Below are positions 4,995 to 53,130 of a DNA stretch of 64,000 nt, piece after piece. The position numbers and the translations under genes are program-made. The notes beneath the pieces were generated by a model, which saw nothing but the letters and a program-made list of their open reading frames with translations, made no database searches and had not been told where the DNA came from. This stretch comes from an uncultured bacterium (GTDB lineage: Bacteria > Vulcanimicrobiota > Xenobia > Xenobiales > Xenobiaceae): positions 10,862 to 74,861 of the forward strand of contig CAKTUZ010000005.1 of the NCBI GenBank assembly GCA_934621605.1, written 5' to 3'. Position 1 is the stretch's first letter. Each line of letters starts with the position of its first letter.

Positions 4995-6371
4995 ATGAAT
5001 TCATTTACGAGCGCCGAGATCAAAAACAGATTGAGCCGTTTAATCGGCGGTTTTCGTTGGCGCGCTGTGGTTATGGTGGCTGTCATTTATCTATTCTCTT
5101 TCAGTATTGTAGCCGGTTCTGTAATTTGTTTGGCTCGCACCCGAGGTAAAGAAGAACTTTCTTTCGCTTTGGTGCAAAGTGTGAAAGCTTTTGGTTATGC
5201 CGGTACGCGTGAATTTGACACTGCCGTTACGCAAGCCGAGTTTTTGGCTGCCGATTCTTGCCTTGACGCCTACAGGCACAGTCCCAATCTCAAGCAAAGT
5301 TTCGCTTCGCTTTCCGAAGCCGACAAAAAACAACTTAGCGGCGATATGCTTACCGCCTTGGCCAATATTTCTAAGGACGCAGTTGCTGTTGTCGATTCTG
5401 AGGGCGAGGTATGTTTCTTTACAGAGCGTACTGCACCCAAAGAAAAAGGTGGCGGCGCTCCTGCCGAAATCGATTTTGGCAAGGCGGAAAACCATGATAA
5501 GCAAAGCGAGACGGCCGCTAAAAGTGAGACCGATAAAAATTTGGATAAACTTGAGGCTGATTTCTTGGATTCCGTCTTTAAGTTTGGCGAAGCCGGCAAA
5601 GGATGCTTGCGCTTTAGCTCTTCCTCTTCTGCGCCTCTCTATAATGTAGTGGCTGTACCTTTGAATAAGGGAAGTAAAGATGAAAAGAAGAGGGGGGCTT
5701 TGCTTTTAGCTGAGCGGATTGACGATAAAACGTTAGTTAAATGGAGTCAGAATATGCCTCCTGGCCTTTTGGTCTTGGTCTCTCAGGGCAAGTTGGTTTC
5801 AGCTTACGATAAACGCTCTGATTCGCGTCCTACTCCCACTATGGCTGCCGAGTTGGATAAAATGCTCAAATATTGGAGCCCGCGCCAAAATCTTGCCGAA
5901 TCTGGCAAAGGCAGCTCTCAGTTTAAGATTACCAGTTCCGACGTCAAGTTGGCAGGCAAAACTTGGAAAGCGGCTGTAGCCGAGCTGGATAGCAGCAAAA
6001 AACGCGAAGCAGTGGCCTATGTAGTCTTCTTGGCTGATCCTATGAATTTAGATCAAGAAGTGAGCCAACATGTATGGGTTTTAGGTATATGTTTGGCTGT
6101 CACTCTGATTATACAAAGTGTGTTAGTCTATTTCTTGAGTCCGCTCTGTTTGCGCTTTGCCAGAGTCCACTTACAAGCCGGTTCAGCCCATTTAGCTTCT
6201 TTAGAAGCAAAGTCGCGCCAAACTCAAAACCAGGCTGCCTCAGATAACGCCATCGCTAAACCTGCTTCCGTAGTCAATTCTATTGCCGAGGCTGCGCCTG
6301 GAGCCGGAACTGAAGCTTCTGCTAATCCTGTCGCTCCTATTGCTTCTGGTAGTGAAGAAGCCAAAAACTAA
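4995..6371 (+). CDS. Membrane protein with two TM segments flanking a large extracytoplasmic domain (sensor-like, no output domain)
   Basis: TM1 is AVVMVAVIYLFSFSIVAGSVICL and TM2 is VWVLGICLAVTLIIQSVLVYFL. No catalytic motif is recognisable. Confidence 0.5.
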   Translation: MNSFTSAEIKNRLSRLIGGFRWRAVVMVAVIYLFSFSIVAGSVICLARTRGKEELSFALVQSVKAFGYAGTREFDTAVTQAEFLAADSCLDAYRHSPNLKQSFASLSEADKKQLSGDMLTALANISKDAVAVVDSEGEVCFFTERTAPKEKGGGAPAEIDFGKAENHDKQSETAAKSETDKNLDKLEADFLDSVFKFGEAGKGCLRFSSSSSAPLYNVVAVPLNKGSKDEKKRGALLLAERIDDKTLVKWSQNMPPGLLVLVSQGKLVSAYDKRSDSRPTPTMAAELDKMLKYWSPRQNLAESGKGSSQFKITSSDVKLAGKTWKAAVAELDSSKKREAVAYVVFLADPMNLDQEVSQHVWVLGICLAVTLIIQSVLVYFLSPLCLRFARVHLQAGSAHLASLEAKSRQTQNQAASDNAIAKPASVVNSIAEAAPGAGTEASANPVAPIASGSEEAKN

Positions 6372-6395
6372 ATTAATATTTGTATTTACTGCACT

Positions 6396-6428
6396 AAGGC
6401 CAAGGTTTGAGCCCGGCCTTTTTTGTTG
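6396..6428 (+). terminator. Intrinsic terminator
   Basis: AAGGCC...GGCCTT stem followed by TTTTGTT. Confidence 0.6.
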
Positions 6429-6449
6429 AAATAAAAGAAAGCTACTCTT

Positions 6450-7277
6450 ATGAAAAAAACCAAAGTGCGTCTCGATTTGCTTTTGGTAGAGCGAGCCTTG
6501 GCTCCCACTCGAGAAAAAGCTAAATCTCTGTTGATGACCGGTCAAATTTTTGTCAATGGTGTCTGTCGCGACAAAGCTGGTTTTTTGGTCGATGAGGAAT
6601 CGGAAATAACGATCCAGGGGAGGGGTATACCTTTTTCCAGTCGCGGCGGTTTTAAATTGGAGAAAGCTTTACATTCTTTCGAAATATCTCCTCAAGACAA
6701 GATTGTGGCTGATTTGGGCGCTTCTACCGGTGGTTTTACTGATTGCTTGCTTAAAGGCGGAGCAGCTAAAGTTTACGCTGTAGATGTAGGTAAGGGGCTT
6801 TTGGATTATAAACTTACCCAAGACAGTCGCGTAGTGGTTATGGATCGCACCAATGCTCGCTATTTAACTCGCGAGATGTTTGCCGAACCTTTGGATTTGG
6901 TCACTATGGATTTGTCTTTTATCTCTTTGGAGCTTATTTTGCCTGCCGCCAAAGAGCTTTTGGCTGCCGAGGGGCGGATCGTCTGTTTGATTAAGCCTCA
7001 ATTTGAAGCTGGCCCCAAAAATATTAAAGGCGGTGTGGTACGTCGCCCTGAAGTACATGAGCAAGTTCTGACTAATTTTATAGCTTTTTGTCAAAGTATT
7101 GGTTTACTAGTAGAAAAATTGACGTTTTCGCCTATTAAAGGGCCTGCCGGCAATATTGAATTTTTGGCTTGTCTAACGATTGCTGATAGGGAAGAGCGCA
7201 GTTGCAATTCTGAAAACGGCGAATATGCTTGGGATATTAAAGAGTTAGTTTCTCAAGCTTGGCAAGAGGCTAAATAG
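6450..7277 (+). CDS. tlyA: TlyA-family 16S/23S rRNA (cytidine-2'-O)-methyltransferase
   Basis: N-terminal S4-like segment RLDLLLVERALAPTREKAKSLLMTGQIFVNG, plus the FtsJ-like motif DLGASTGGFTDCLLKGGAAKVYAVDVG. Confidence 0.85.
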   Translation: MKKTKVRLDLLLVERALAPTREKAKSLLMTGQIFVNGVCRDKAGFLVDEESEITIQGRGIPFSSRGGFKLEKALHSFEISPQDKIVADLGASTGGFTDCLLKGGAAKVYAVDVGKGLLDYKLTQDSRVVVMDRTNARYLTREMFAEPLDLVTMDLSFISLELILPAAKELLAAEGRIVCLIKPQFEAGPKNIKGGVVRRPEVHEQVLTNFIAFCQSIGLLVEKLTFSPIKGPAGNIEFLACLTIADREERSCNSENGEYAWDIKELVSQAWQEAK

Positions 7278-8609: not shown

Positions 8610-10496
8610 TTACTGTTTTAGGTCAAGCAAAGCCTGATTCATGGCTGCGGCTTCATCTAAAGCGCAGACCAAATGGAATTTGCCTTTACCTAAAGCCATA
8701 AGGTTAAAGCCTTGGGCTCCTAATTCTTCGGCTTTAACTTGGGCGGCGTCTTTCACTTGGAAAACTACACGAGTTAAGGAAGCCAAATGAATATTTTCCA
8801 AGTTGCCGATACCGCCAACCAAAGAGGCAAATTCAGTTGCTTTATGGCGTGTGGCTGCGTTGACTGACACAGGCTCGCTTGTGGTAGAGCTGACCGGTGT
8901 GGCGGTGGGCAAGGGAGCGGCGTCGCCGTGAGCGTTAATATATTCTTCAATGTCGGATTTGAGATTTTCGGAAAGGGTTCCGAAAATAGCTTGTAAGTTA
9001 TTGCCTACAGTAACTACTCCGGCAGCGCCTAAAGCTTTGAGAGTGTCGGGACTGGCTTTGGCAATATCTTTTAAGCCGACGCGCAAACGAGTAATGCAAG
9101 CGTCCAAGCTGACTAAGTTGGTTCGGCCGCCCAAAGCTTGGAGTACTTTACCGGCCAATTCACTGCCGCTGCCTCCGGCTTCGCTACCGGCCATAGCTTC
9201 TTCGCGGCCGGGAGTTTTGAAATCGAATATTTCGATAGCTTTGCGGAAAACTACGTAGTAAATCACTGCGTAAATCGGGCCGAGCCAGAGTACGCAGCTG
9301 GGATTGGTATCGTTGTGGAAATAGAGTAAATAGTCGATACAACCTTGGGAAAAAGTGAAGCCCATATGAGCTCCCACTAAGTTCATTACGTAGAAGGCGC
9401 TGCCTACCAAAATAGCATGAATAGCGTAAAGGGCCGGAGCTACGAAAAGGAAGGAAAATTCGATAGGCTCAGTGATACCGGTCAGGAAGGAAGTGAGAGC
9501 CGCCGACATCATTATTCCGCCTACCTGGACTCTGTTTTCCGGCTTGGCGCTGTGCCAAATAGCAATGGCCGCTGCTGGTAAGCCCCACATCTTAAAGAGG
9601 AAGCCGCCGCCTAAAATTCCGGCTGTGGGATCGCCGTTAAAGAAGCGGGTAATATCGCCTTGTACAATGCTGCCGTCGGGAGTGGTAAAGCTGCCCATTT
9701 GGAAGAAGAAGGGAGCATTCCAAGCATGGTGCAAGCCGAAAGGCAATAAAGCTCTTTCTACTACGCCGTATACGGTGGCAGCCAGGGAAGGGTTTTCGTT
9801 GGCAGCCCAGTTGCCGGCTAAGGTAATGAGAGCACCGATAGGCGGCCAGACAAAGCTGAGCACAATACCGGTCAGGATAGCGGCAAAGGCTGTCACAATA
9901 GGCACGAAGCGCTTACCGGCAAAGAAGCCTAAGTAGGGTGGCAGCGAAATACGATAGTATTTATTAAACAGATAGGCTGTAATGATACCTATAACGATGC
10001 CGCCGAAAACGCCGGTGTCGACACTTTTTATACCCATTATCGTTGTAGTGGAAAGAGTCGATTGGGCACTTAGCAAACCGCCACAATCCGGACAATATTT
10101 TAGTATATCCAATCCTCGGATAGTGGCCATAACTCCCATAGTAGCATTCATGACCATATAGCCGACTACGGCCGCTAAGGCGGAAACACCATCATTTTTA
10201 GTTAAACCTAAGGCTACGCCGATAGCAAAAATTAAGGGCAAGTTGCTGAAAATTACTTGACCTGAGTCGCCCATAATTTTCAAAATAGCTACGCCCAAGG
10301 CCATAATAGTAGGCCAACCTTGGGTAAATATATTGACGCCGCTCTTGAGGACAGCGTCTAAATTAGCAGGCATCCAGCCGTATTTGGAAGCGCCCACGCC
10401 CAACAAAATACCTGCCACAGGCAGGACGGCTACCGGCAACATTAGGGCTTTGCCTATTTGCTGCAGAATGCCGAAAGCTTTTTTGAAAAAGTTCAC
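8610..10496 (-). CDS. PTS glucose/GlcNAc-family permease EIICB with an extra degenerate EIIB-like C-terminal module
   Basis: EIIC N-terminus FGILQQIGKALMLPVAVLPVAGILLGVG. EIIB site GGRTNLVSLDACITRLRV. A second copy, GGIGNLENIHLASLTRVVF, has Ser where the phospho-Cys would be. The GTG start overlaps the upstream stop (GTGA). Confidence 0.85.
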   Translation of the reverse strand: MNFFKKAFGILQQIGKALMLPVAVLPVAGILLGVGASKYGWMPANLDAVLKSGVNIFTQGWPTIMALGVAILKIMGDSGQVIFSNLPLIFAIGVALGLTKNDGVSALAAVVGYMVMNATMGVMATIRGLDILKYCPDCGGLLSAQSTLSTTTIMGIKSVDTGVFGGIVIGIITAYLFNKYYRISLPPYLGFFAGKRFVPIVTAFAAILTGIVLSFVWPPIGALITLAGNWAANENPSLAATVYGVVERALLPFGLHHAWNAPFFFQMGSFTTPDGSIVQGDITRFFNGDPTAGILGGGFLFKMWGLPAAAIAIWHSAKPENRVQVGGIMMSAALTSFLTGITEPIEFSFLFVAPALYAIHAILVGSAFYVMNLVGAHMGFTFSQGCIDYLLYFHNDTNPSCVLWLGPIYAVIYYVVFRKAIEIFDFKTPGREEAMAGSEAGGSGSELAGKVLQALGGRTNLVSLDACITRLRVGLKDIAKASPDTLKALGAAGVVTVGNNLQAIFGTLSENLKSDIEEYINAHGDAAPLPTATPVSSTTSEPVSVNAATRHKATEFASLVGGIGNLENIHLASLTRVVFQVKDAAQVKAEELGAQGFNLMALGKGKFHLVCALDEAAAMNQALLDLKQ

Positions 10497-39142: not shown

Positions 39143-40726
39143 TTGTTACAAAACATGACTAACAAGAACACGTTTCGTTTTGCTACTTTCGCTGCTGTAG
39201 CCAGCTTAGGTTTGGGCTTGATGATCTCCGGCTGTGGTGACAGCGGTTCCACTACCCCCAACCCTTTAAATGCCAAATATGGCCAAGTTACTTTTAACTA
39301 CAACGTATTAGCCGCTAAGGTCGCTACCCCCGTTGCCAAAGAAATCGTTACTGTAAAGTATGCTTTCTTCGGTTTGAAGACCGGTGGCGCTCGCTTTATC
39401 GATGGTCCTAGCGCTGCCTATACTCGCGATTTCGTCCATGGCGATAAGGATCAGGAAAAAACTGTTACGATTGATAATGTCGATCTCGATGCCCGCGGCG
39501 TAATCGCTACTTACTATGACAAAGCCGGTAATATTGTGGCTATGGGAGAAGATACCATCGCTTTCACCGATCGTAAGTGCGCTATCGAAGAGCCCGACTT
39601 AGCTACTATTGATGCTACTACTATCAAGATGGATGCTAGTACGCATGTGCTTTCTCCCAAGGGTGAGACCGAAATCAGCATTATTGCTGATGGTAAGACT
39701 GCTGCCGGTGGCGTTAAGACTTATAAGCTTACTCCTTTCGTGACCATTGAAGGTCTCGATAAATATACCGATGTTTTGGCTTTCAATTATGCCAGCTATC
39801 AGGGCTTAACTTACGAAGGTGTGGGCTATGACGGCGCCAATAAGGGTATCGTTCCCGGCAAGACCATTAAAGCTACCATCAATGGCGCCGACTACTATGT
39901 AGACGAGGCTATTTATGTTACCGATCAGCATCCTGTCGACATCCAAGTTGTCGTTGATGATATTGACGGTGTGGCTCCCTTCGTTGGTGCCACAAAGGTA
40001 CCCCTTATCTTCGCCGATAAGGAAAGCTTGGTTGCCGGTAAGAATATTATCAATATGACTGAAGCCGGTACTACTACCGTTGAGCATGTAGCTGTCAACA
40101 AGTTGCCTTTCAAAGTTCATGCTGCTGCTTATAGCAAAGATCCTGGTAAGGGTGAGACGCCTGTACTTCCTACTGGCTCTACTGCTTTTGATATTTCCGA
40201 TTTAACCGGTCTTAAACTCGTCTCTTCTTTACCCGACACAGTCGAAGTTGCCGGTTTGGGCGTCACCGCTAAGAAAGCCGGTTCCACCGCTATTTCCGCT
40301 GAGCTTAAGATTGACGAGACCACTACTATTAAGAGCGACAGCAGCAAGGATATTAATGTCGAAGTCTTGTCTACCACTGAGAACCTCACTTTCGCTAATA
40401 TTGAAGCTGGCCCGAAATTCATGGAAGACATTACTGTAGATACCACCAAACCTCAGAACTTCACTATGGCTATCTATGGTAAAGTTGGCATGACCTTTGA
40501 TGCTAAGGACTATGTCGCCGCTCCTATCGAGTACACCGCCGAAACTTATCCCGATGTCGAGGCCCTCGATGCCAGTTTAACTGGTAGTACTTATGAAAAG
40601 ACCGTTGACAAGAATGAGTATAAACTTCATGTTGATACTACCGCTCCCGCAGCTGCTGTTCCCGTAACTGTTAAAGATGCGGCCAGTCTCAAGCCCGCCT
40701 TCGCCTCCATCCAGATTAAACCCTAA
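39143..40726 (+). CDS. Paralogous surface lipoprotein family member P1
   Basis: Lipobox LMISG|C followed by GDSGSTTPNPL. Homologous to P2 along its length (VTFNYNVLA, IVTVKYAFFG, ATYYDKAGNIVAMG, IYVTDQ). TTG start after GAAAGGG. dnaK-like codon bias. Confidence 0.75.
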   Translation: MLQNMTNKNTFRFATFAAVASLGLGLMISGCGDSGSTTPNPLNAKYGQVTFNYNVLAAKVATPVAKEIVTVKYAFFGLKTGGARFIDGPSAAYTRDFVHGDKDQEKTVTIDNVDLDARGVIATYYDKAGNIVAMGEDTIAFTDRKCAIEEPDLATIDATTIKMDASTHVLSPKGETEISIIADGKTAAGGVKTYKLTPFVTIEGLDKYTDVLAFNYASYQGLTYEGVGYDGANKGIVPGKTIKATINGADYYVDEAIYVTDQHPVDIQVVVDDIDGVAPFVGATKVPLIFADKESLVAGKNIINMTEAGTTTVEHVAVNKLPFKVHAAAYSKDPGKGETPVLPTGSTAFDISDLTGLKLVSSLPDTVEVAGLGVTAKKAGSTAISAELKIDETTTIKSDSSKDINVEVLSTTENLTFANIEAGPKFMEDITVDTTKPQNFTMAIYGKVGMTFDAKDYVAAPIEYTAETYPDVEALDASLTGSTYEKTVDKNEYKLHVDTTAPAAAVPVTVKDAASLKPAFASIQIKP

Positions 40727-40798
40727 GATTGATGGCGTAGGATTATGCTTCATCTAGGCTGAGTTATATAACATTACGCCTGGTTGAAGTTAGGTAGC

Positions 40799-40840
40799 AG
40801 CCCCCAACTTGTTGTCAAGTTGGGGGCTGTCTTCTTTAAT
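40799..40840 (+). terminator. Intrinsic terminator after P1
   Basis: Perfect 13-bp stem AGCCCCCAACTTG-TTGT-CAAGTTGGGGGCT followed by a T-rich tract. Confidence 0.85.
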
Positions 40841-40878
40841 ATATATATTGGCTTTTTTTGCTCCAAATGAAAGGAACT

Positions 40879-42564
40879 ATGTTAAATAATATGAGCCATA
40901 AAAATACTTTTCGTTTTGCTGTCTGCGCCGCTGTAGTCAGTGTGGCTTTGGGCTTATTCCTTTCCGCTTGCGGTGACAGCGGCTCTACCACACCTAATCC
41001 TTTGCAACCGGAAGGAAAATCTTATCAAGTTGTCTTTAATTACAATGTGTTAGCCCAAGCTGCAGCTAAAGCTACCGATATAAAAGCTGATATTGTTACG
41101 GTAAAATACGCTTTTTATGGCAAAATTGATGGCGCCGACTTTGTAGAAGGCCCTGAAACCGATCCTTCTTATATTCATAGCTTTAGTCATGGAGCCGAAG
41201 CTGCTGAAGATGTAGTTACTGTCAATAAAGTTGATCCGAGAGCTACTTCGGTGGTAGCTGCTTATTACGACGCTAAGGGCAACTTGATAGCCGTCGGTCA
41301 AAATGATATTTCTTTTAATGAAGATCGTATCGCTACTGTGGCTGAGCCCGAATTAGACGAAGTAGCTGACGACAGCATAACTTTTACCGCTAGCAAATAC
41401 GTTATACCTTTACAAGACACCGTCGTAATGTCTCTTAAAGCTATAGCTGCCAACAAAGAGTACGATTTGAGCGCTTTTGCTGAAATTAGCGGCTTAGATG
41501 AAAATATACTCGCTTTGCAAGAAGGCAACTTAGAAGGCTTCACCTATAAGGGTGTCAAGTATGGCACTATTGAAGGTGGCACCATTAGCGCTACTGTTGG
41601 TAATACTAAGTGCTTAGTAGGCAATTCTATTTATGTTACCGATCAAACTCCTGCTGCTATTAGCTTAAAGCCTGCTTCAGTTGAAGGCCATGATATTTTT
41701 GCCGGTAGTGATGTCAATGGCCAAAAGTATTATATGCAATACGTTGACGAGAAGTGTTTACTTAGCCATTTCCCCTACATAAAGTATCACGCTAATTCTT
41801 CTAAGAAACAATACGATCCCATATATTACTATATAAACGAGCAGCCTTTTATCGTTTATGCCACCGCTTATACTTCCGAAGATCCTACCAAAGGGCCTAC
41901 TCCCACTATTAAAGATGGACAAATTGGTATCAATATTACCGATGATCCTAACGTTAAGCTTTTAGATATCGAATTTTCCGATCCTGAGTTTATGAAGCAT
42001 CTTGGCTACAAAATTCAGGCTAGTATAGTCGATAGAACTAAAGTTCATGCCAATAGCGTAAACTCTTATAATTATGGCGACGATTACAAAATAACTGCCC
42101 AATATGGCCAAGGCGACCAAGCTATAAAGAGCGATCCCATAAGGTTAATTATAGAAGCCGAAGGCGTAAGGAATGAAGTTATTCAGTTTGCCTCCGTAGA
42201 GGAAGGTCAAGAACCTACTTTCTTTGTTCCTTATAACATTGAAGCTAAGAAAACTAAGATCGACTTTAAGTTGAAACTTATGGGCCTTTCTAGTGTGCTT
42301 GTTACCTTTGATGGAGAAGAACCGGTATCTTTCTATACCGATCCTTTGGAAATTCCCGCTGATGTAATTGCTGCTGATAAATATCCTGATGTTGTTAAGC
42401 AAACTGAGTTTTCCAACTTAATTTATAAGCAGGATGAACCTGGACTCAATGCTTACACCTTAAAAGCTGAAGGCGAGCTGGAAGCCAATAAAATAGTTAA
42501 GCTTTTTATTGAAGACGTGGAAGGCGCTCCGCAGTATTCTTTCATATCTATTACCACTTATTAG
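40879..42564 (+). CDS. Paralogous surface lipoprotein family member P2
   Basis: MLNNMSHKNTFRFAV...FLSA|CGDSGSTTPNPL. ATG at 40879 was chosen because its RBS/start region aligns base-for-base with the P1 start. Visibly more AT-rich than P1. Confidence 0.75.
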   Translation: MLNNMSHKNTFRFAVCAAVVSVALGLFLSACGDSGSTTPNPLQPEGKSYQVVFNYNVLAQAAAKATDIKADIVTVKYAFYGKIDGADFVEGPETDPSYIHSFSHGAEAAEDVVTVNKVDPRATSVVAAYYDAKGNLIAVGQNDISFNEDRIATVAEPELDEVADDSITFTASKYVIPLQDTVVMSLKAIAANKEYDLSAFAEISGLDENILALQEGNLEGFTYKGVKYGTIEGGTISATVGNTKCLVGNSIYVTDQTPAAISLKPASVEGHDIFAGSDVNGQKYYMQYVDEKCLLSHFPYIKYHANSSKKQYDPIYYYINEQPFIVYATAYTSEDPTKGPTPTIKDGQIGINITDDPNVKLLDIEFSDPEFMKHLGYKIQASIVDRTKVHANSVNSYNYGDDYKITAQYGQGDQAIKSDPIRLIIEAEGVRNEVIQFASVEEGQEPTFFVPYNIEAKKTKIDFKLKLMGLSSVLVTFDGEEPVSFYTDPLEIPADVIAADKYPDVVKQTEFSNLIYKQDEPGLNAYTLKAEGELEANKIVKLFIEDVEGAPQYSFISITTY

Positions 42565-42590
42565 AGTGATAGTTTTGTAAACTAACTATA

Positions 42591-42630
42591 AGCGGTTGTA
42601 CTTTTTGACAAGTGCAGCCGCTTTTTTTTG
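42591..42630 (+). terminator. Intrinsic terminator after P2
   Basis: 11-bp stem (AGCGGTTGTAC / GTGCAGCCGCT, with two G-U pairs) followed by T8. Confidence 0.75.
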
Positions 42631-42845
42631 TTGGCAGGCTTGGCAGGAGGGAGGGCGCCTTGTTTGAAAATAGACAAGTTATCTTTATTTTTGCCTGCGC
42701 TGGGCTGGCTCTTTTTTCGTGCCAAGTCGGCGGCGCTTGTCTCTTGTAAGCAATTCTCCAGCTGCAAAGCGGAGAAATGATTTGAGAAATTTTCGCGTTT
42801 TTGGGCGCGGTTCAACTCTTTTTATATCTGAGAGGAACAGAAAAT

Positions 42846-44450
42846 ATGGCTAAGTCCGCCTGTAAGAATCTATATGGCTTTACTGCTTTTGCGGCTGTTG
42901 CCGGTTTGGCTTTATGTTTAACTGCCACCGGGTGCAGCGACGATACTTCTAATCCCAATCCTTTTGAGGCCAATCGCGGTACTGTCACCTACAATTATAC
43001 TAAAGCCGTAGCCAAAGCAGCCGAGCTCCCCGCCAGCGCTGTCAAAGCTACCTATACTTTTAGTGCCGGTGATGCTTTGCTCTATGCTGTCGATGCTTCT
43101 ATCGATAAAATTACAGATGAGGAAGCTACTGTCGGTGAAGCGGTGTCCCGTACAGTTGTTATAGAGCAAGTGCCTGCCGATGCCGACAAGGTTTCTGTTA
43201 TGTATTTCGACGCTAATGGCACCCCTGTAGGCTTAGGCGTAGACAGGCTCGATTGGACTTCTACTACCACAGGTAAAGCTGCTGTTGTAGATCAGCCCGA
43301 CTTGGTAGATAGCACCACTATTGCTGCCCAAATTGTCTCTAAACAAATCGTTCCCCAGTTAGTCACTTCCGCTCCTTGTGTAGATAAGGGCAATTATGTT
43401 TGGGTTAAACCTGTTTTGGCTTATAATAACAGTTTGGGGCAGTCGGTCACTTTCGATCTCAGCAGTTTTGCTACTTATTCTTTGAATAAGAAATATGACG
43501 GTCAGCCTACTTATTTAAAAGAGGCCAAGTATGCTTATTATGCTGGTAACAAAGCTGCATCTTTGGTGGAAACTACTGAAGGTGAAACTACCAGTGAAGG
43601 AACTGAAGCTACTGCTAAATCGGCCGCTTCCGATGCTACTCCCGGTTATTACGAAGCTGTCGAGTACGGTCAGCAAGAAGTGACCGTCTCTTTAACTGGT
43701 TTGGAAGTGTTGGGTGAGCTCGATCCTGTCACTGTCTATATTAGTGATGCCAAGCTTTCCGGCGTAACTATAGATGGTGAAGATGATGTATATGTTGTAG
43801 TTCCGGATTATGACTTTGGTCAAAAATCCGCAATTGTTTCTGGCCTTAGCCTTGGGGAAATTCCTTTTAATACAGTTTCTTTCAAAGCTGTAGGTAACTA
43901 TGTGGGTACTAACGGCCCTAGCTTCACTACCGACGCTAGCCAGTTTGTCAGCTGGAGCGTGGATGATAGTCAAGACGTCGTTGCTGCCAAAGATGCTTTA
44001 GGTCACTATGTAGTTACCTCTAAAGTTGCTTCTTTGAAAGATATTGCCGTAATTGCTCAGGCTAACGGTACTTCCGACAAAGTAACTTTACACTCTCTGC
44101 CCGCTGCTGCTGATATTAAGGTTAATATCGCCAAAGAAATCGTTTTTGGTACGGTCGCGGATGGTACGGTTGATGGTTACTTTGCTGTTCAAACCTCCGG
44201 TGGCAAAGTCGATACTTCTTCTTTCAACGTTCCCGATTATAAGAAAGTTAAAATTAGGAACATTGAATCCGATCGAGCCGACAGTAAACCTAAAGTGGCC
44301 GTAAATGAGAACAATAACGGTTTTTATCTTAGCCTTGATCAAGAAGAGGTCGGAAACAGCGTTTCCTTCGATATCGTTTACAAAGACGGTAAGAAGATAA
44401 ATAAAACTGTTTCTAATACGGTAAAAGTAATAGAAGATGTAGAACCGTAA
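42846..44450 (+). CDS. Paralogous surface lipoprotein family member P3
   Basis: MAKSACKNLYGFTAFAAVAGLALCLTATG|CSDDTSNPNPF. Shares TVTYNY, VKATYTF, VSVMYFDANGTPVGLG and VYISD with P1 and P2. Confidence 0.7.
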   Translation: MAKSACKNLYGFTAFAAVAGLALCLTATGCSDDTSNPNPFEANRGTVTYNYTKAVAKAAELPASAVKATYTFSAGDALLYAVDASIDKITDEEATVGEAVSRTVVIEQVPADADKVSVMYFDANGTPVGLGVDRLDWTSTTTGKAAVVDQPDLVDSTTIAAQIVSKQIVPQLVTSAPCVDKGNYVWVKPVLAYNNSLGQSVTFDLSSFATYSLNKKYDGQPTYLKEAKYAYYAGNKAASLVETTEGETTSEGTEATAKSAASDATPGYYEAVEYGQQEVTVSLTGLEVLGELDPVTVYISDAKLSGVTIDGEDDVYVVVPDYDFGQKSAIVSGLSLGEIPFNTVSFKAVGNYVGTNGPSFTTDASQFVSWSVDDSQDVVAAKDALGHYVVTSKVASLKDIAVIAQANGTSDKVTLHSLPAAADIKVNIAKEIVFGTVADGTVDGYFAVQTSGGKVDTSSFNVPDYKKVKIRNIESDRADSKPKVAVNENNNGFYLSLDQEEVGNSVSFDIVYKDGKKINKTVSNTVKVIEDVEP

Positions 44451-44625
44451 CAATATTGTGATATTGAAGATTAATGCTTTTTTAGCGTAAAAGGTGGCTG
44501 TCTCAGCTCTCTGGGGCTGCCCCTTTTTTTTAGATAAATCTTACTTTTAGGGCAGGCGGAAAATTTTCAGCCTCGACAAAAGTATTTGGGGTTTTAGTAT
44601 CAATTTTTATTTGAAAGGAATATCT

Positions 44626-46071
44626 ATGAGTAAAATTTTTCTTAATAAGCGCTCTTGGAAAGTTTTAGTTACTTTTCTTATAGTGTTGGGCTTGTGCACC
44701 GTTTTGAGTGCATGCTCCGACGATGACGAGTTGGCTAATCCCTCTCGCGCTTCTATTCTGGTAACTCACGAAATTTCTTCCGCTAAAATAGGAGCTTCGG
44801 CTCGTGCTTTAGGTTCCGATATTCACAGTGTGATTTACTATTGCTACAATAGCCAAGGCGTACGCACTTTTGGCCCGGCCCAGTTGGTAAAAGCTCACCA
44901 AGTGCTTTTGCAAGCCGTTCCAGTTGAATCTACTTCTATTGGCATGACCTACTACAATAGCGACGGTAAAGCTTTGGCTTACTACAGCCAACCTGTCAGC
45001 TTAAAAGTGGGCCAGGTCTATGAAGTAACCAATCCCGAGTGGAAATATCTTGACGAAATCGACAATATGGTCGGCTTAGAAATCGCTCAAGACGAGATGC
45101 GTTTGCATACCGGCGACGACGCCATTTTCTATGCTTTGGCTTTATTTAAAGATGCCACTAGCGGTAAGGTTTATCCTCAGCTTTTCACCGGTATGTGCGA
45201 TTGGAAGAGCAGCAATACTAAAGTTGCTTCTTTAACTAAGCAAACTGACGATGGCGAAAACACTTTGGGCAACGGCAAGTTCTACACTTTAGCTGCCGGC
45301 AGTGCTGACATAAGTGCTACTTTCCAAAAATATACTGATACCGTAACCTTAAATGTTACAGATGCTGATATTACGGGAGTAAAATTTGCTGAAACTGAAG
45401 TCACTTTGCCTTTAGGCTTGCCTTCTTACGAGTGTCCCTTAATAGCTACTTGGTCTGACGGCGAAACTACCGATGTAAGTTACCAGAGCAACTGGAGTTC
45501 TAGCAATATCGATCGCGTTTTAGCTAGCTATGGCGCTATCTTCCCCAAATCTTGCCACGAAACTGAAGAACAGCCTACTACTATTACCGCTACTTGCACT
45601 TCCAATGGCAACAGTTATCAAGCTCAGTGTCAAGTTACCGTAGTTAATGGTACTTTCAAAGGTGTAAGTGTCAATATCGATCCCGAGCCTGTCTATGTGG
45701 GTGAAAGTAGTATTATTGAAGTTTTTGCCACTTTTACCGTTAATGGAGCAGAGAAGAGTTACGAAATAGATGATTCCAGTTCCTATACAGTAACTTCCTC
45801 CGATCCTAAAGTAGCTTCTGTCAGCCTTTACGGTATTTCGTTGGAAGGTTTATCCGTAGGTACTACAGAGCTGACTGTAAAGTTTGATAGTGGAGAAATT
45901 AAGGGAGACATCACTGTTACAGTTCCTGTTATTGAGCGTTCTGCTTCCGGTACTGATGTTGACACCGACGAAGATGGTGGTAATGAAGATGGCGATGGGA
46001 CCGGAGATTCTGAAGGCGACGGCAGCGGCGAAGGGGAAGATGGCGGCGACATCGACATCGGTGGCCTGTAA
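44626..46071 (+). CDS. Paralogous surface lipoprotein family member P4 with Big_2-like Ig domains and acidic Gly/Asp tail
   Basis: MSKIFLN...VLSA|CSDDDELANP. N-terminal module is related to P1-P3 (IGMTYYNSDGKALAYY). Big_2-like segments (SSNTKVASLT...GKFYTLAAGSADISATF; SSDPKVASVS...GLSVGTTELTV). The tail is DTDEDGGNEDGDGTGDSEGDGSGEGEDGGDIDIGGL. Confidence 0.7.
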   Translation: MSKIFLNKRSWKVLVTFLIVLGLCTVLSACSDDDELANPSRASILVTHEISSAKIGASARALGSDIHSVIYYCYNSQGVRTFGPAQLVKAHQVLLQAVPVESTSIGMTYYNSDGKALAYYSQPVSLKVGQVYEVTNPEWKYLDEIDNMVGLEIAQDEMRLHTGDDAIFYALALFKDATSGKVYPQLFTGMCDWKSSNTKVASLTKQTDDGENTLGNGKFYTLAAGSADISATFQKYTDTVTLNVTDADITGVKFAETEVTLPLGLPSYECPLIATWSDGETTDVSYQSNWSSSNIDRVLASYGAIFPKSCHETEEQPTTITATCTSNGNSYQAQCQVTVVNGTFKGVSVNIDPEPVYVGESSIIEVFATFTVNGAEKSYEIDDSSSYTVTSSDPKVASVSLYGISLEGLSVGTTELTVKFDSGEIKGDITVTVPVIERSASGTDVDTDEDGGNEDGDGTGDSEGDGSGEGEDGGDIDIGGL

Positions 46072-46099
46072 TTTGCTTACCAAACTTCAATAAGTCATA

Positions 46100-46143
46100 A
46101 AAAATGAGCCCTCTGCTTTTAGCGGAAGGGCTCAATTTTTTTT
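46100..46143. terminator. Bidirectional intrinsic terminator shared by P4 and the convergent rSAM/SPASM gene
   Basis: GAGCCCTCTGC-TTTTA-GCGGAAGGGCTC hairpin, with an A-run on one side and a T-run on the other. Confidence 0.8.
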
Positions 46144-47248
46144 ACTTTTCTTCAACTTGCCAGCGCTCTAAGCTGCCGGGAATTTCTGAACTGAGTCGCT
46201 CCAAAATAGCTTGCATAGCTTCGCACATAATGGTTTGTCGATCCGGATCGCCGCTGAGTTGGCGCTCCCAGGCGCAACCTCCGCGACAGAAATGGAACCA
46301 CTTGCAATTGCGGCAATTGACGGGGATTTGCGCCCAACGTCGGAAAAATTCTATAGCTTTGGGAGAAGTCATCAGCTCTTTTAAGGTATGCTGATGAATA
46401 TTGCCTAAGCAGAATTCTTTCATGCCGGAAAATTCGTCGCAAGGGTAGACGTCACCGTTGTGAGCAAAGCCCACAAAGTGGGAACATTTGCCTTGCAATT
46501 TGCAATAATGCGGTGTATGACCGGCCAATTTGCGGGAAATTTCAGAAAGGATACGTACTCGGAAGTTGGGATTGCCTATAGCCAACCAGCGATCCAAAAC
46601 GCGCATAATAAAATCTTTATATTGCTTGCCGCTGATTTCTACTTCGAAATGGCCTTCATGGAAACGGGTTGAGGGAACAAAGTCCATTTCTCGGACGCCT
46701 TGGCTTTCGAACCAATCGACCAATTCTTCAGGATGTTCCAAGCCTCGAGGAGTAAGTACGGCCGATACGCGGGGATTTATTCCCATTTTGCGCAAATGGG
46801 TAATGCCCTTCCATACGGCTTCAAAAGTGCCTTTACCGGCTTGGGTTCCGGCTCTGTATACGCGCTGTTGATCGTGTAACCAAGGAGGGCCGTCCAAACT
46901 GACAGTGACGGCAAAGCCTCTTTTAGCTAAAAGGTCAGCCCACTCATCGTTAATGAGCGTACCGTTAGTTTGTAAGCCGTGGTAGACGGTACGTCCGGCA
47001 AAATACTGATCCACTAATTCCATCGCTTGAGCGAAGCGCTTGACGCCATAGAGGGTAGGTTCGCCGCCGAACCACAAAAGATGGATAGAGCCTTGAGTAT
47101 TTTGGGCTACCGCTTCGAGGGATTTTTCTAACGTCGCCCGGTCCATAAAATAACCGGAGCCCAGCTTCCCATCCTGACAGCAATACTTGCAGGCGAGGTT
47201 GCAGGACTCGGTTAATTTAAAGACTGGCCTTAATTGGCCGGAAATCAC
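46142..47248 (-). CDS. Radical SAM/SPASM-domain enzyme (candidate peptide maturase)
   Basis: CNLACKYC (CX3CX2C) at residues 16-23, GGEPTL and LQTNGTL. C-terminal SPASM Cys pattern YCKLQGKCSHF...VYPCDEF...CRNCKWFHFCRGGC. The GTG start overlaps the TGA of the upstream 30-aa ORF. Confidence 0.85.
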   Translation of the reverse strand: MISGQLRPVFKLTESCNLACKYCCQDGKLGSGYFMDRATLEKSLEAVAQNTQGSIHLLWFGGEPTLYGVKRFAQAMELVDQYFAGRTVYHGLQTNGTLINDEWADLLAKRGFAVTVSLDGPPWLHDQQRVYRAGTQAGKGTFEAVWKGITHLRKMGINPRVSAVLTPRGLEHPEELVDWFESQGVREMDFVPSTRFHEGHFEVEISGKQYKDFIMRVLDRWLAIGNPNFRVRILSEISRKLAGHTPHYCKLQGKCSHFVGFAHNGDVYPCDEFSGMKEFCLGNIHQHTLKELMTSPKAIEFFRRWAQIPVNCRNCKWFHFCRGGCAWERQLSGDPDRQTIMCEAMQAILERLSSEIPGSLERWQVEEK

Positions 47249-47337
47249 GCCTTAACCCAGCAAACGCAGTCTTTTTCTTCGGGATCAGCATTGATAGCTG
47301 CAGCGATTACAGCATTAACTTCTTTGGTCTCTGCCAT
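47245..47337 (-). CDS. 30-aa candidate RiPP precursor peptide MAETKEVNAVIAAAINADPEEKDCVCWVKA
   Basis: Translated by hand and absent from the ORF track because it is under 60 aa. AAGGAG ends 8 nt before the ATG (47335-47337). An in-frame TAA lies 15 nt upstream. The TGA stop (47245-47247) overlaps the maturase GTG (47246-47248). Confidence 0.6.
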   Translation of the reverse strand: MAETKEVNAVIAAAINADPEEKDCVCWVKA

Positions 47338-47353
47338 TTTGATTTCTCCTTAT

Positions 47354-47384
47354 ATTGTAGGCGGCGGGGTTGAAATGAAAGCAA
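47354..47384 (-). promoter_or_regulatory. Possible sigma70-type promoter for the peptide/rSAM operon
   Basis: On the reverse strand, TTGCTT (47379-47384) - 19 nt - TACAAT (47354-47359), just upstream of the peptide RBS. The spacer is longer than optimal. Confidence 0.25.
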
Positions 47385-47512
47385 CCTCGTGTATTTTGTC
47401 TTTGGCTAGTCGTTATAGGCGGCTCAGCCAAAAAGACGAATGGCCGCCTTCGCTTCCTGAGGAATGCGCTCCTGCTTTGATTTAGGGCCTTAAGCAAGGG
47501 AAGACTCGGCCT

Positions 47513-48889
47513 CTATTTTTTATCTTGTTGGTCGACTTGAGGTTGTGTCTCCTTAACAGTAACCTCTTTAGAAGTGGGCTCTTGAGTCTGTCCCTCGGCA
47601 GTATTTTGAGTTTCGGCAGCGTTGATTGCGGCAAGTTCGGAGCTTTTTAAGCCGTATTGACGCAACTTATGAACTAATTGTTTGCTGTCTTTAACTTTGC
47701 CATGTACTTTGCTGACTATTTGCTTTACCGATTCGCGAGCTGGTACGGTGGCATTGGCTTCGGGAGGGTAAGGCGTTTCCGGCAAGCGCATATCTTCTTC
47801 GGTAAGTGGGCCGAAAGCTGGGTTCTTCTCTACGTAAAATTCTATACATACTCTGGTAATGGCCGCCAAAGGAATAGCTATAAGCATACCCATAATGCCG
47901 CCGATTTCGGCTCCGGCAATTAAAGCTACCATTACTGTAAGGGGAGGCAATTTGACAGAGCGTCCAATTACAGCCGGCACAATAATATGGCCTTCTAGCC
48001 AGTGTACGGCTTGCAAAACAATGATGGTAAAGACGGCAAAGAGCGGCCCTTTATTGAGTAGGGCAATAATAAAGGCTGGTATGTAGCTTATGGCTACGCC
48101 CACGTAGGGAATAATATCGATAAGGCCGGAAAATACTCCGATTAAGACGGCATAATCGATGCCCATAATCCAGAGAGAGATTCCAACAAAAAAACCGATA
48201 GTGACACAGACAATAAGTTGGCCGCGAATAAATTTGCCCAAGACATAGTCTATACGGCGTAATAAATCGACGGCTCCGCTGCGCCAAGCTTTGGGTAAAC
48301 AGCCGACAAAACTTTCTTTATAAACTCCGGCGTCCATTAGAATATAGAAGACCAAGAGGGGGACGAGTATGGCGCCGCCCATAATACTGGCCATGCTGCG
48401 CACTCCGGAGAGGAAGCCGGGCATAGAATTTTTGACTAAACTGGGACTGTTGCTTTGCATAAATTGCATTATATGCTGAGTGCTGAGCTTTTCCGGATCT
48501 ACCATAGGCTTAAGTGTAGTCGGCAACCAGCTCTGAATAGTGAGGGCCCATTGTGAGGTAATGTGATTTAAGTTGGCCGACATTGTGCTCATATTACTGA
48601 GTAAACGATGAAATTCAAGTTTGACAATGGGTAACAAATAAGCCACAAAAAAGCTTATTAAAGCCAACAGAACCAAATATATGATCACTATGGCTGTAGT
48701 TTTTGGTACTCCCTTTTCATGCAAGAAATGGACGCCGGGAGCGATTAAATAAGTGACCAAGACAGACACGATCAAAATATTGACGATCATGTGAATTTGG
48801 CCTAAGAACCAGCAAAAGGCTCCGATTAAGATTAAAAGTCCCAATAAATAGAAAATTATATGGAACTTATTTTTATTATTAGAATCCAT
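47513..48889 (-). CDS. AI-2E (PerM/UPF0118) family transporter with a hydrophilic C-terminal tail of roughly 100 aa
   Basis: Multiple TM segments and the conserved region GLIDIIPYVGVAISYIPAFIIAL. The tail starts after FYVEKNP. Confidence 0.75.
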   Translation of the reverse strand: MDSNNKNKFHIIFYLLGLLILIGAFCWFLGQIHMIVNILIVSVLVTYLIAPGVHFLHEKGVPKTTAIVIIYLVLLALISFFVAYLLPIVKLEFHRLLSNMSTMSANLNHITSQWALTIQSWLPTTLKPMVDPEKLSTQHIMQFMQSNSPSLVKNSMPGFLSGVRSMASIMGGAILVPLLVFYILMDAGVYKESFVGCLPKAWRSGAVDLLRRIDYVLGKFIRGQLIVCVTIGFFVGISLWIMGIDYAVLIGVFSGLIDIIPYVGVAISYIPAFIIALLNKGPLFAVFTIIVLQAVHWLEGHIIVPAVIGRSVKLPPLTVMVALIAGAEIGGIMGMLIAIPLAAITRVCIEFYVEKNPAFGPLTEEDMRLPETPYPPEANATVPARESVKQIVSKVHGKVKDSKQLVHKLRQYGLKSSELAAINAAETQNTAEGQTQEPTSKEVTVKETQPQVDQQDKK

Positions 48890-51275: not shown

Positions 51276-52058
51276 ATGGCTGTCACACATGATGCGTGCG
51301 CTTCCGCTCCCCCTTTGGAAGCCTTCCTACACGAAGGCTGGGGTTGTATTACTTTGCAAAGACCTCGTAAAGCCAACGCTTACAACGCGCCCATGTTGGA
51401 AAGTTTGCGTTCTGCTTTGAGCCAATGGCAACAAGAGGGAAAGCAAGCTCTTATTATCAAGTCGGCTCAGCCGCGTTTTTTCTGTGCCGGAGCTGACAAA
51501 GACGAATTAGAGGCGCGTTCCGGTTTAGATGCCTTTAACCTTTTAGCTCGCGAGGTCTTTGCTGAACTGTACGCTTGGCCGGGACTTACTATAGCTGTAA
51601 TTGAAGGTGCGGCTCGAGGTGGCGGTGTGGAGTTGGCTCTAGCTTGCGATGTGCGTTTGGTTACGGCGCAGGCTAGCTTCGCTTTTCCCGAACTTAGCCT
51701 AAGTCTTATGCCCGCCGCCGGGGGGATCGGCCGTTTAACCCAATTGGCAGGTCCCGGCCTGACTAAAAGTATGGTGTTAGCAGGCCAAGTGTTAGGGGGA
51801 GCGGAAGCGCACGCTGTGGGGCTGGCCGCTTATTTTTGCCAGGATGGAGCTGCAGCTGTCGACTTGGCTGAGCGCCTGGCCCGGCGAGCGGCCAGCTTAG
51901 ATAGGGCAGCTTTGCTTTTAGCAAAGCAGCAATGTAACGCGGCCGCCTGCGGAGCTTGGGGAAGAGAAGCGCAGGCGGCTTTCGAGGGGGCAGCGCAAGC
52001 TTTTTTGTATGAGCGGCGCAGCCAAATATTAAGAAAAGAGCAGCATTTTCATGGATAA
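51276..52058 (+). CDS. Enoyl-CoA hydratase/isomerase (crotonase) family protein
   Basis: ITLQRPRKANAYN...FFCAGADKDEL...GAARGGGVELALACD oxyanion-hole pattern. Visibly GC-richer than its neighbours. Confidence 0.8.
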   Translation: MAVTHDACASAPPLEAFLHEGWGCITLQRPRKANAYNAPMLESLRSALSQWQQEGKQALIIKSAQPRFFCAGADKDELEARSGLDAFNLLAREVFAELYAWPGLTIAVIEGAARGGGVELALACDVRLVTAQASFAFPELSLSLMPAAGGIGRLTQLAGPGLTKSMVLAGQVLGGAEAHAVGLAAYFCQDGAAAVDLAERLARRAASLDRAALLLAKQQCNAAACGAWGREAQAAFEGAAQAFLYERRSQILRKEQHFHG

Positions 52059-53130
52059 TCCGCGAGTTATCTCTATCGGTACAGCCAGGCCGACGACTTC
52101 TTACACGCAAGCCCAACTGGCTCAATATTTTGGCATCGGTAATCGCAAGATTCAGGCTCTTTTCGCTAACAGTCACATTAAAAAGCGCTGTCTGAATTTG
52201 CCGCGTTTGCAAGAGGCATTACAAAATGACCGAGCCGAAGAGCCCATGCTCAGTGAAGATCCCGATATTTTGGCTTCTCGCCATCGCCAAGGGGTGATTT
52301 CCTTAGGTTCGTCTGCTTTGCGCGAAGCTTTGCAAAAAGCCCAATTGGCCGTTCAAGATCTTGATTATATCGTTTGTGTAACCTCCACAGGTTTTCTCTG
52401 TCCTGGCGCTAGCGCTTTGCTAACTAAAGAATTGGGCTTGGCTGAGACTATTTATCGTTTGGATGTAGTGGGCATGGGCTGCAACGCAGCTATGAATGGT
52501 TTGCAGCCTTTGGTCAATTTTTTGCGCCTCAATCCGCAAAAAGTGGGCGCTTTGGTCTGTGTGGAAAATTGCTCTTCAGCTTATGTCGTTGACGAAAAAA
52601 TGGTAACGGCGGTAGTTAATTCACTTTTTGGAGATGCTTGTGCGGCTTTAATTGTGGCTGGTAGTCAATGTTCCAAAACAGAAGTCAATCCTGATTTACC
52701 GCAAATTGTAGATTTTGAAAGTCAGATAGTTGTCGAAGCCCAAGAGACTATGCGCTTTGAACATAAGCAAGGACGCTTGGCTTTTTTTCTGGATAAGGAT
52801 ATCCCTTATTTTTTGGGGCAAAATGCTCATAAGCCAGTGCGACGTCTCTGGGAACGCAATCATTTGAAGAAACGCGACATTTCTTGGTGGCTAGTTCATT
52901 CCGGCGGTAAGAAAGTGATCGACAGTTTGAAGATGAATTTAGGACTTTCCGATTATGATTTACGCCATACTGTCGATATATTGGCTGACTATGGCAACAT
53001 CTCTTCTTGTTCGGTACTTTACTCTTTAGGCCGTTTAAGCGCTGAAAATGTGGCTGTACCCGGAGATTATGCTACTTTAATAACCATGGGCCCCGGAGCC
53101 TCTGTCGAAACGGCTTTGCTGCGTTGGTAA
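52051..53130 (+). CDS. Type III polyketide synthase (chalcone/stilbene synthase superfamily)
   Basis: Cys-His-Asn triad contexts VVGMGCNAAMNGL, WWLVHSGGKKVID and YGNISSCSVLY. The ATG overlaps the crotonase stop by 8 nt. Confidence 0.75.
   Translation: MDNPRVISIGTARPTTSYTQAQLAQYFGIGNRKIQALFANSHIKKRCLNLPRLQEALQNDRAEEPMLSEDPDILASRHRQGVISLGSSALREALQKAQLAVQDLDYIVCVTSTGFLCPGASALLTKELGLAETIYRLDVVGMGCNAAMNGLQPLVNFLRLNPQKVGALVCVENCSSAYVVDEKMVTAVVNSLFGDACAALIVAGSQCSKTEVNPDLPQIVDFESQIVVEAQETMRFEHKQGRLAFFLDKDIPYFLGQNAHKPVRRLWERNHLKKRDISWWLVHSGGKKVIDSLKMNLGLSDYDLRHTVDILADYGNISSCSVLYSLGRLSAENVAVPGDYATLITMGPGASVETALLRW

Follow-up and report, generated by a model that had tools for sequence, protein, structure and literature searches.

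Triceptides are defined by a three-residue cyclophane formed on an aromatic-X-X motif (PMC11499958), and the enzymes of this group (XyeB/XncB, OscB/GrrM, HtkB, HaaB, ChlB, and MicB) are radical S-adenosylmethionine (rSAM)/SPASM proteins of ~360-375 aa, encoded beside a short precursor and devoid of the recognition element (RRE) of peptides that are synthesized ribosomally and modified post-translationally (RiPPs). Their targets carry a basic third residue (HTK, YSK, FTK, WSK/WTK, and YDR). HtkB joins His-C2 to Lys-C-beta on H-T-K, with an Asp (D214) governing the selectivity for Lys (PMC11499958), YSK and FTK are related motifs (PMC12912966), and the WSK/WTK rings of xenorceptide A2 contain bonds from Trp-C6 to C-beta (bioRxiv 10.1101/2024.12.16.628070). 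W-x-K is also the motif of ring B of darobactin, in which W3-C6 is bonded to K5-C-beta (PMC9055067). Here we analyze a locus of similar make-up in a 64,000-nucleotide stretch of DNA from an uncultured bacterium of the Xenobia (contig CAKTUZ010000005.1, positions 10,862 to 74,861; the whole stretch is referred to as the window, and positions are counted from its first letter). In this locus a 30-aa peptide gene overlaps the gene of a 368-aa rSAM/SPASM enzyme, and we hold with high confidence that the two encode a RiPP precursor and its maturase. The explanation that we find best, and to which we attach moderate confidence, is a minimal RiPP cassette of two genes, in which the maturase would cross-link the Trp and the Lys of a C-terminal W-x-K.

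The peptide gene and its pairing with the enzyme gene

The precursor peptide gene lies on the minus strand at 47245..47337 (stop included) and encodes the 30-aa peptide MAETKEVNAVIAAAINADPEEKDCVCWVKA; it was recognized in the open reading frame (ORF) listing and by its conservation beside the enzyme gene. A Shine-Dalgarno sequence, AAGGAG (47346..47351, minus strand), ends 8 nt ahead of its ATG, and an in-frame TAA is located 15 nt upstream of the ATG. Its TGA stop overlaps the GTG start of the enzyme gene (46142..47248, minus strand) in a GTGA junction (47245..47248, as read on the minus strand), which suggests translational coupling. This GTG is the first possible start of the enzyme, with an in-frame stop two codons upstream, and the resulting N-terminus (VISGQLRPVFKLTESC) is kept in orthologues. 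The enzyme carries its CX3CX2C motif, CNLACKYC, at residues 16-23, and a SPASM pattern, CRNCKWFHFCRGGC, near its end. A preliminary description of this DNA had reported the 93-nt ORF with its upstream signals, the overlap with the 368-aa ORF, the forced enzyme start, and both Cys patterns, and every one of these details holds on minus-strand reading. The same description had called the peptide gene unannotated, which is correct in that the peptide is unnamed in every source and matched by neither Pfam nor NCBIfam, but not in the literal sense of an uncalled gene, as more than 100 public contigs already carry the exact window peptide as a gene-caller prediction.

A search for enzyme homologues in 5.8 billion proteins returned a tight series of relatives (P0001-P0043) at 96% to about 39% identity, followed by anSME-like proteins at ~33%. 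For the comparison of gene order, 25 loci were taken from species-representative genomes and 80 from metagenomes (the latter mostly outgroup), and 11 further loci came from single-protein look-ups (L106-L113 in-family, L114-L116 sister outgroup); loci whose enzyme has 38% identity or more were treated as in-family, and those with anSME-like enzymes at 36% or less as outgroup. Wherever the upstream DNA of an in-family locus is readable, the enzyme start is abutted or overlapped by an ORF with a W-x-K-(A/G)-stop ending, except in three paralogue loci (L020, L022, and L023); no such ORF stands beside the enzyme in any of the 66 outgroup loci. The pairing of peptide and enzyme is far beyond chance, and the adjacent small ORF that the preliminary description had proposed to look for in orthologues is kept in all but the paralogue loci. 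The peptides of the orthologous loci are 30-56 aa long, mostly with GGAGG or AAGGAG 6-9 nt before the inferred ATG. Of the 25 representative loci, 15 have an NTGA stop-start overlap, and 2 others have peptide and enzyme genes that abut at a distance of 0 to 1 nt. The overlapping set includes the clade of L010-L012, whose enzymes have a ~30-aa Pro/Gly-rich N-terminal extension (MSTGLNPPPG...) seen in no other clade, with an ATG that overlaps the peptide stop. A profile search with the peptide in the same 5.8-billion-protein collection found 26 clusters, and an exhaustive hidden Markov model search of 1.84 billion representatives found 18 small peptides, all ending in W-(V/F/A/T)-K-(A/G), together with three spurious repeat proteins.

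The small ORF is under purifying selection. Within clade A (30-aa peptides), the third codon position accounts for 19 of the 27 variable sites, the ratio of nonsynonymous to synonymous polymorphism (pN/pS) of the peptide gene is 0.13, and the last eight codons, which form the core, have a pN of 0 against a pS of 0.29. The corresponding pN/pS in clade B is 0.41, and core pN across clades is 0-0.05. Taken together, co-occurrence, gene signals, selection, and profile searches establish the small ORF as a genuine selected gene that is specifically tied to this enzyme clade.

The small ORF might instead be a regulatory leader peptide that, in the manner of TnaC, acts by ribosome arrest or coupling, with W-x-K-(A/G)-stop controlling translation of the enzyme and the peptide itself left unmodified. 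The conserved stop-start overlap would suit such a function, as would the paralogues that function without an adjacent peptide and the concentration of conservation in the last ~25 residues, which is roughly what the ribosomal exit tunnel holds. However, the distance between the leader motif and the Trp varies (~16-19 residues), the peptide co-occurs with a remodeled enzyme active site (described below), and an aromatic-x-basic motif beside an RRE-less rSAM/SPASM enzyme is the exact substrate type of the nearest maturases (PMC11499958; PMC12912966). We consider a purely regulatory peptide very unlikely.

What is conserved in the peptide is concentrated at its C-terminus. Three positions and no others are invariant in the peptide alignments (A2-A4), namely the initiator Met, the Trp, and the Lys; the Lys is always the second residue after the Trp, a single small residue (Ala or Gly) always separates it from the stop, and W-(V/F/A/T)-K is invariant in all ~40 distinct peptides recovered. 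A hydrophobic residue occupies position -2, with an acidic patch a few residues further upstream. The N-terminal part is variable (peptides of 30-73 aa) and the C-terminus fixed, and the sole conserved stretch of the leader, with the consensus (V/I/L)(N/H)P(V/A)(L/I)A..(L/I), is found ~16-19 residues ahead of the Trp as counted on the aligned peptides. In the window peptide this stretch corresponds to VNAVIAAA at residues 7-14 (47296..47319, minus strand), a recognition-like motif with a candidate role in enzyme binding, and the predicted modification site is W27-V28-K29-A30 (47248..47259, minus strand).

The preliminary description had read the core CVCWVKA as offering both Cys for thioethers and Trp-x-Lys for a cross-link, and had predicted C-x-C-W-x-K as the conserved motif. 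Trp-x-Lys is indeed invariant, but the motif reduces to W-x-K-(A/G)-stop, as the two Cys (C24 and C26) are limited to the gut clade and are replaced elsewhere by Ser, Thr, Ala, or Pro, in cores such as DSVSWVKA, DTFTWFKG, DTVSWVKG, EAVPWVKG, and DELAWAKG. Further evidence comes from P0164, a relative of the L015 peptide and a natural variant ending in ...EEKDRVCWVKA, in which Arg takes the place of the first Cys of the gut-clade core, suggesting that this Cys is dispensable. Cys donors conserved within the core, by which sactipeptides and ranthipeptides are recognized, were thus found in the gut clade only. For that clade, thioethers of the sactipeptide or ranthipeptide type might still be formed from the two Cys, which adjoin the conserved motif, and the enzyme scores 129 bits with the PapB ranthipeptide model. 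Against this, Cys is absent from most of the family and one of the two is Arg in a gut-clade variant, and the active-site signature residues are identical in Cys-containing and Cys-free clades, so that thioethers would be at most an extra reaction in one clade; as the modification made by this enzyme they are highly improbable. Because Cys is replaced by Ser, Thr, Ala, Pro, or Arg outside the gut-clade core, neither Cys thioethers nor oxidation of Ser or Cys is the family-defining chemistry. A formylglycine-type oxidation of the Ser, Cys, or Thr before the Trp, followed by imine formation with the Lys, was considered as well and rejected, as both positions are Ala or Pro in some members (...EAVPWVKG).

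Placement of the enzyme and its signature residues

The enzyme, which begins with VISGQLRPVFKLTESCNLACKYC, matches the Pfam families Radical_SAM and SPASM and has no RRE domain. Besides C16/C20/C23, eight Cys (C249, C255, C270, C312, C315, C321, C325, and C342) align with cluster ligands of anSMEcpe, and the enzyme is thus predicted to have the full Cys set for three [4Fe-4S] clusters, a set that is common to many SPASM enzymes and therefore not discriminating. Its top NCBIfam match is the anSME model TIGR03942 (244.6 bits, cut-off 349.45), followed by the dynobactin maturase model DynA (NF041298; 219.8 bits, cut-off 450), which is the best among the peptide-maturase models. Scores with DarW, a DarE-related maturase model, and with DarE were 156 and 120 bits (cut-off 650 for each), and those with XyeB, GrrM/OscB, FxsB, YhhB, and AmcB were 91, 136, 101, 126, and 155 bits (cut-offs 450, 310, 370, 445, and 425, respectively). 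No NCBIfam cut-off was reached by any of 31 family members, whose best E-values were 1.2e-74 for anSME, 5e-66 for DynA, and 4.7e-47 for AmcB, the best of the last five models.

In a neighbor-joining tree of 120 sequences rooted on anSMEcpe, P0001-P0043 form one clade on a long stem, and the peptide-less paralogues are nested inside it. The question whether the enzyme nests within genuine anSMEs, raised by the preliminary description, is thereby answered, as the clade lies outside the anSME-like sequences and 0 of the 31 members attain the anSME cut-off.

The likeness to anSME nonetheless extends beyond the NCBIfam match. By sequence, anSMEcpe (4K36-4K39; 27% identity) is the closest solved structure, followed by the triceptide synthase ChlB (9GM3/9GMC), and an AlphaFold2 (AF2) model of the enzyme (pLDDT 91.4) superposes in Foldseek on anSMEcpe with TM-scores of 0.83-0.85 and on ChlB with one of 0.83. 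The enzyme shares with anSMEcpe a three-cluster architecture, the lack of an RRE, and a C-D pair after the third SPASM Cys. These matches, the retention of the eight auxiliary-cluster Cys and of that Asp, and the existence of paralogues without an adjacent peptide, two of them beside an FGE-sulfatase-domain gene, would be compatible with a true anSME, or with an enzyme that acts on some other protein, the small ORF not being its substrate. However, all 31 members fall ~100 bits short of the anSME cut-off, the family is a separate clade in which anSME-like conserved residues are replaced (N95 by H, N161 by R, Q190 by D, F278 by E, and Y24 by Q), and its members strictly co-occur with a 30-57-aa peptide that lacks a C/S-x-P-x-R motif. 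The preliminary description had also noted that the window holds no sulfatase gene, and in agreement no PROSITE-type sulfatase signature was found in any frame of the 64 kb. The sulfatases on which anSMEs act have a C/S-x-P/A-x-R motif, and their genes are usually close to that of the enzyme. We give hardly any weight to the enzyme being an anSME and regard it as a peptide maturase. The central proposal of the preliminary description, a RiPP precursor translationally coupled to an rSAM/SPASM maturase that is not an anSME, is in this way supported by co-occurrence, the tree, and the cut-offs. Its remark that the absence of a PqqD-like recognition element would be unusual does not stand, because ChlB, which was crystallized with its precursor leader, also has no RRE (nor has anSME), and such absence is normal for this branch.

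A comparison of 43 family sequences with 77 outgroup sequences identified the residues by which the family departs from its relatives. The family has H90 where the outgroup has N (99%), R160 where it has N (96%), D189 where it has Q (96%), E272 where it has F (95%), L234 where it has F (92%), and W305 where it has K (94%); E187, R195, and R239 are likewise fixed within the family. Residues 90, 160, and 189 fall in predicted beta-strands of the AF2 model and may form part of the barrel that lines the substrate cavity. D189 is aligned with the Asp of the ChlB sequence LDFL, and the X3 residue that is cross-linked by ChlB is basic (the Arg of Y-D-R). We infer from these switches that the active site was readjusted to fit a cationic, C-terminal peptide instead of a sulfatase loop, with D189 and E272 as candidate holders of the Lys ammonium and R160, R195, and R239 as candidate holders of the free C-terminal carboxylate.

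Two further kinds of loci were observed among the relatives of the enzyme. The paralogue loci (L020, 5068-5805 and about 5990-7074, and L023, 5211-5903, from the same metagenome-assembled genomes as L017 and L018) contain a second enzyme copy (43-46% identity to the window enzyme) that keeps all family signature residues. No W-x-K peptide was found near the paralogues of L020, L022, and L023 in 13 kb on either strand. In two of the loci the paralogue is directly downstream of a gene with an FGE-sulfatase (SUMF1-like) domain (Pfam 8.6e-49), and L020 has another rSAM gene at 8825-9802. In L114 (2345-2539 and 2617-7408), and likewise in L115, a 64-aa ORF ending in ...GADWWQFHEHSDST precedes the nearest outgroup enzyme, P0044 (33% identity), and DUF364, two more rSAM genes, and a PNP_UDP_1 gene follow it. 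Here, too, the genes may form a RiPP cluster, aromatic-rich but different in kind.

A predicted Trp-Lys cyclophane and its relation to named systems

Trp and Lys are the probable target of the enzyme, because they alone are invariant, at a fixed spacing and one residue from the stop, and because the neighboring Cys, Ser, and Thr are dispensable. From these invariant residues, and by analogy with the nearest characterized enzymes, the modification would be a single Trp-Lys C-C cyclophane, a prediction that we consider moderately probable, and the product would most likely be a three-residue cyclophane of the triceptide or darobactin ring-B type. We propose that the 30-aa peptide is translated and that the ribosome may then re-initiate on the GTG, the overlap of which with the peptide stop is visible in the DNA. 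The RRE-less enzyme would bind the conserved leader helix, (V/I)(N/H)PV(L/I)A..L, directly, as ChlB does its precursor leader, and the C-terminal W-x-K-(A/G)-COOH would be placed in the active site. Reductive cleavage of SAM would generate a 5'-deoxyadenosyl radical that takes a hydrogen from the Lys side chain, most likely at C-beta, and the Lys radical would add to the indole of the Trp two residues upstream. Re-aromatization, with the electron passing to the two auxiliary [4Fe-4S] clusters, would complete the C-C bond at a net change of -2 Da, giving a cyclophane comparable to darobactin ring B or to the xenorceptide WSK/WTK rings.

The same pair could instead carry out another chemistry on W-x-K, such as a tryglysin-like double C-C linkage (tetrahydrobenzindole), a bond to Lys C-gamma or C-delta or from a different indole carbon, a C-N or C-O bond, epimerization, or dehydrogenation. 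There are precedents, as WgkB puts two C-C bonds on the W-G-K of tryglysin (PMC9389541), WprB joins Trp-C5 to Arg-C-gamma on W-P-R (PMC11851443), and DarE also forms ether bonds and dehydro-Trp (PMC9055067). Moreover, the enzyme lies outside the characterized subfamilies, and regiochemistry is therefore unreadable from homology. On the other hand, WgkB, StrB/SuiB, and WprB carry an N-terminal RRE and are of streptococcal type, whereas the present enzyme is RRE-less and anSME/ChlB-like; the best peptide-maturase models are DynA, DarW, and AmcB, the last of which is cyclophane-forming according to NCBIfam; and epimerization would not account for the strict retention of both W and K at a fixed spacing. 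We regard a different W-x-K chemistry as a serious possibility, though one that we lean against.

Several points weigh against the Trp-Lys cyclophane that we favor. Its chemistry is drawn by analogy from other systems, the functions assigned to D189, E272, and the Arg residues are conjectural, and W-x-K and the similar W-P-R are processed otherwise in tryglysin and by WprB, as described above. The enzyme is far under the cut-offs of all named cyclophane synthase models, with anSME still as its top match, although this top match is in itself no argument against cyclophane chemistry. Characterized triceptide clusters usually come with proteases or exporters and often hold several motifs, whereas this cassette has one motif and zero partner genes. 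Finally, the paralogues have identical signature residues and no adjacent peptide, and adjacency of a peptide is therefore not obligatory.

With respect to classification, the preliminary description had found the pair not assignable to any named RiPP class. No named subfamily accommodates it, but the triceptide definition fits and the predicted ring resembles ring B of darobactin, and on sequence grounds the pair qualifies as a candidate triceptide precursor with an enzyme that would work like a three-residue cyclophane-forming enzyme. It differs from the triceptide systems in that the enzyme is under every named subfamily cut-off and has 21% identity to ChlB, and in that it keeps the eight anSME-type auxiliary-cluster Cys, several of which are unmatched in the ChlB alignment. 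Also unlike in triceptides, the peptide has a single motif one residue from the C-terminus within a near-invariant core, and the cassette has no linked protease or exporter and is confined to Xenobia.

The minimal darobactin cluster, like this cassette, consists of a precursor and one rSAM enzyme (PMC9055067), and the dynobactin maturase model is the best of its kind for our enzyme, although at half of its cut-off. The Xenobia peptide, however, lacks a W-x-W ether motif, and no ABC exporter is linked to it. Bamabactins, which target BamA, have an S-F tail (bioRxiv 10.1101/2024.12.16.628070) in place of the K-(A/G) end found here. Daropeptides are recognized by an aromatic-X-aromatic motif for the ether cross-link (PMC12912966; PMC9055067); this motif is absent from the aligned peptides, in which the -2 residue is V, F, L, or I and is not conserved as aromatic, and judged by its peptides the system is therefore not a daropeptide system. 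Tryglysin, streptide, and WprB resemble it in that Trp is joined to Lys or Arg by an rSAM enzyme (WgkB, StrB/SuiB, and WprB, respectively), with the same W-x-(K/R) spacing in tryglysin and WprB (PMC9389541; PMC11851443). They differ in bond position, the structural similarity to SuiB is only distant (TM about 0.6), and quorum-sensing regulators are linked to their clusters.

SCIFF (ScfA/ScfB) is likewise a clade-wide two-gene cassette of a peptide with a highly conserved core and an rSAM/SPASM enzyme, but it is Cys-rich, thioether-forming, and clostridial, and the ScfB model gives the Xenobia enzyme 80 bits. The two-gene organization and the near-invariant core resemble SCIFF and not the fast-diversifying antibiotic RiPPs, and this is the basis for a further alternative, that of a class-wide, near-housekeeping system of Xenobia with a status like that of SCIFF, mycofactocin, or PQQ. 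Its product would be a cofactor precursor, a metal or redox carrier, or a signal with a Trp-Lys-linked C-terminus, perhaps made by a new W-x-K chemistry in which the carboxylate takes part in recognition, and in some genomes the unlinked paralogue would act on the same peptide. In this full form we consider the proposal unlikely. For the Trp-Lys cyclophane as we predict it, we also infer a conserved physiological role rather than that of a fast-evolving antibiotic, because the core is near-invariant across a bacterial class and there is no linked protease or exporter.

The system is set apart by its single C-terminally anchored motif, by the complete cluster set of anSME type, by the minimal size of the cassette, and by its confinement to Xenobia. 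Our literature search found no paper on this peptide or enzyme clade, and none that ties Eremiobacterota or Bruticola to the system; searches for the core strings SWVKG, CWVKA, TWFKG, and SWVKA returned unrelated matches only.

Distribution, neighboring genes, and meaning

The records that contain the cassette are labeled UBP9, Candidatus Bruticola, Xenobia, Eremiobacterota, or Vulcanimicrobiota, and were obtained from the gut of primates or humans, from the rumen, and from the environment; in the NCBI taxonomy, Bruticola belongs to class Xenobia of the Vulcanimicrobiota. Deviating labels occur in L012, L014, and L018/L023 (Burkholderiales), L009 (Riflebacteria), L021 (Armatimonadetes), and L108 (Nitrosotenuis). 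As they disagree with the Xenobia/Eremiobacterota labels of the closest relatives, they probably reflect mis-binning, labeling errors, or outdated names.

Neighboring genes are kept only among close relatives. An AI-2E family transporter gene (PF01594; 3e-62) is located at 47513-48889 on the minus strand, 175 nt upstream of the peptide gene and on the same strand, but it is adjacent in the closest relatives only and lies ~1.6-2.1 kb upstream in L007 and L008. Other clades have different neighbors, namely a zinc-ribbon protein together with a histidine kinase, AsnA, or MlaD. The transporter and the downstream convergent Big_2 protein were considered as members of the cassette and rejected, being conserved only in close relatives; a role of the transporter in export is possible but unsupported. 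As no neighbor is conserved past close relatives, the system is a cassette of two genes to which no dedicated protease or exporter belongs. Between the enzyme gene and the convergent gene, folding revealed a hairpin with A- and T-run flanks (46099..46137, no strand assigned; minimum free energy -19.8 kcal/mol; z = -4.0 against shuffles). It follows the enzyme gene and faces the convergent gene, and is therefore likely a bidirectional terminator that closes the two-gene unit. This long-loop hairpin was found by folding only, as a simple promoter/terminator scan gave nothing beyond shuffle expectation. Upstream of the peptide gene the intergenic fold is unremarkable (z = -1.8), and an Rfam scan of 45900-47700 at E-values up to 1 returned zero matches, hence no riboswitch or known RNA upstream.

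Two other regions of the window are recorded here in their own right. Four tandem ORFs of 486-568 aa at 39143-46071 (plus strand) have no Pfam match save for a weak Big_2 in the last, which has an acidic Gly/Asp-rich tail; at least two of them are mutually paralogous, and the array is conserved in the gut clade only. At 51276-53130 (plus strand) there are overlapping genes for an enoyl-CoA hydratase and a chalcone/stilbene synthase-like type III polyketide synthase. This pair is kept in L001, L002, L005, L006, and L009 and forms a second small biosynthetic locus ~4 kb from the cassette.

Thousands of rSAM-RiPP families await characterization, and the present case, whose likely chemistry is already known, introduces no new principle but is a solid genome-mining lead. 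It adds an uncharacterized precursor family with the motif W-x-K-(A/G)-COOH and an enzyme clade with the signature H90, R160, D189, and E272, from a lineage that has never been cultured and that includes members from the primate and human gut. A two-gene cassette is about the simplest system for heterologous reconstitution. The predicted Trp-Lys cyclophane also occurs in the BamA-targeting antibiotics darobactin and xenorceptides, and for this reason both the product and the enzyme, as a compact catalyst for C-terminal stapling, may interest natural-product and peptide-engineering groups. For the enzyme family itself, the clade would illustrate how a few replaced residues retune an anSME-like scaffold toward a peptide as its substrate.

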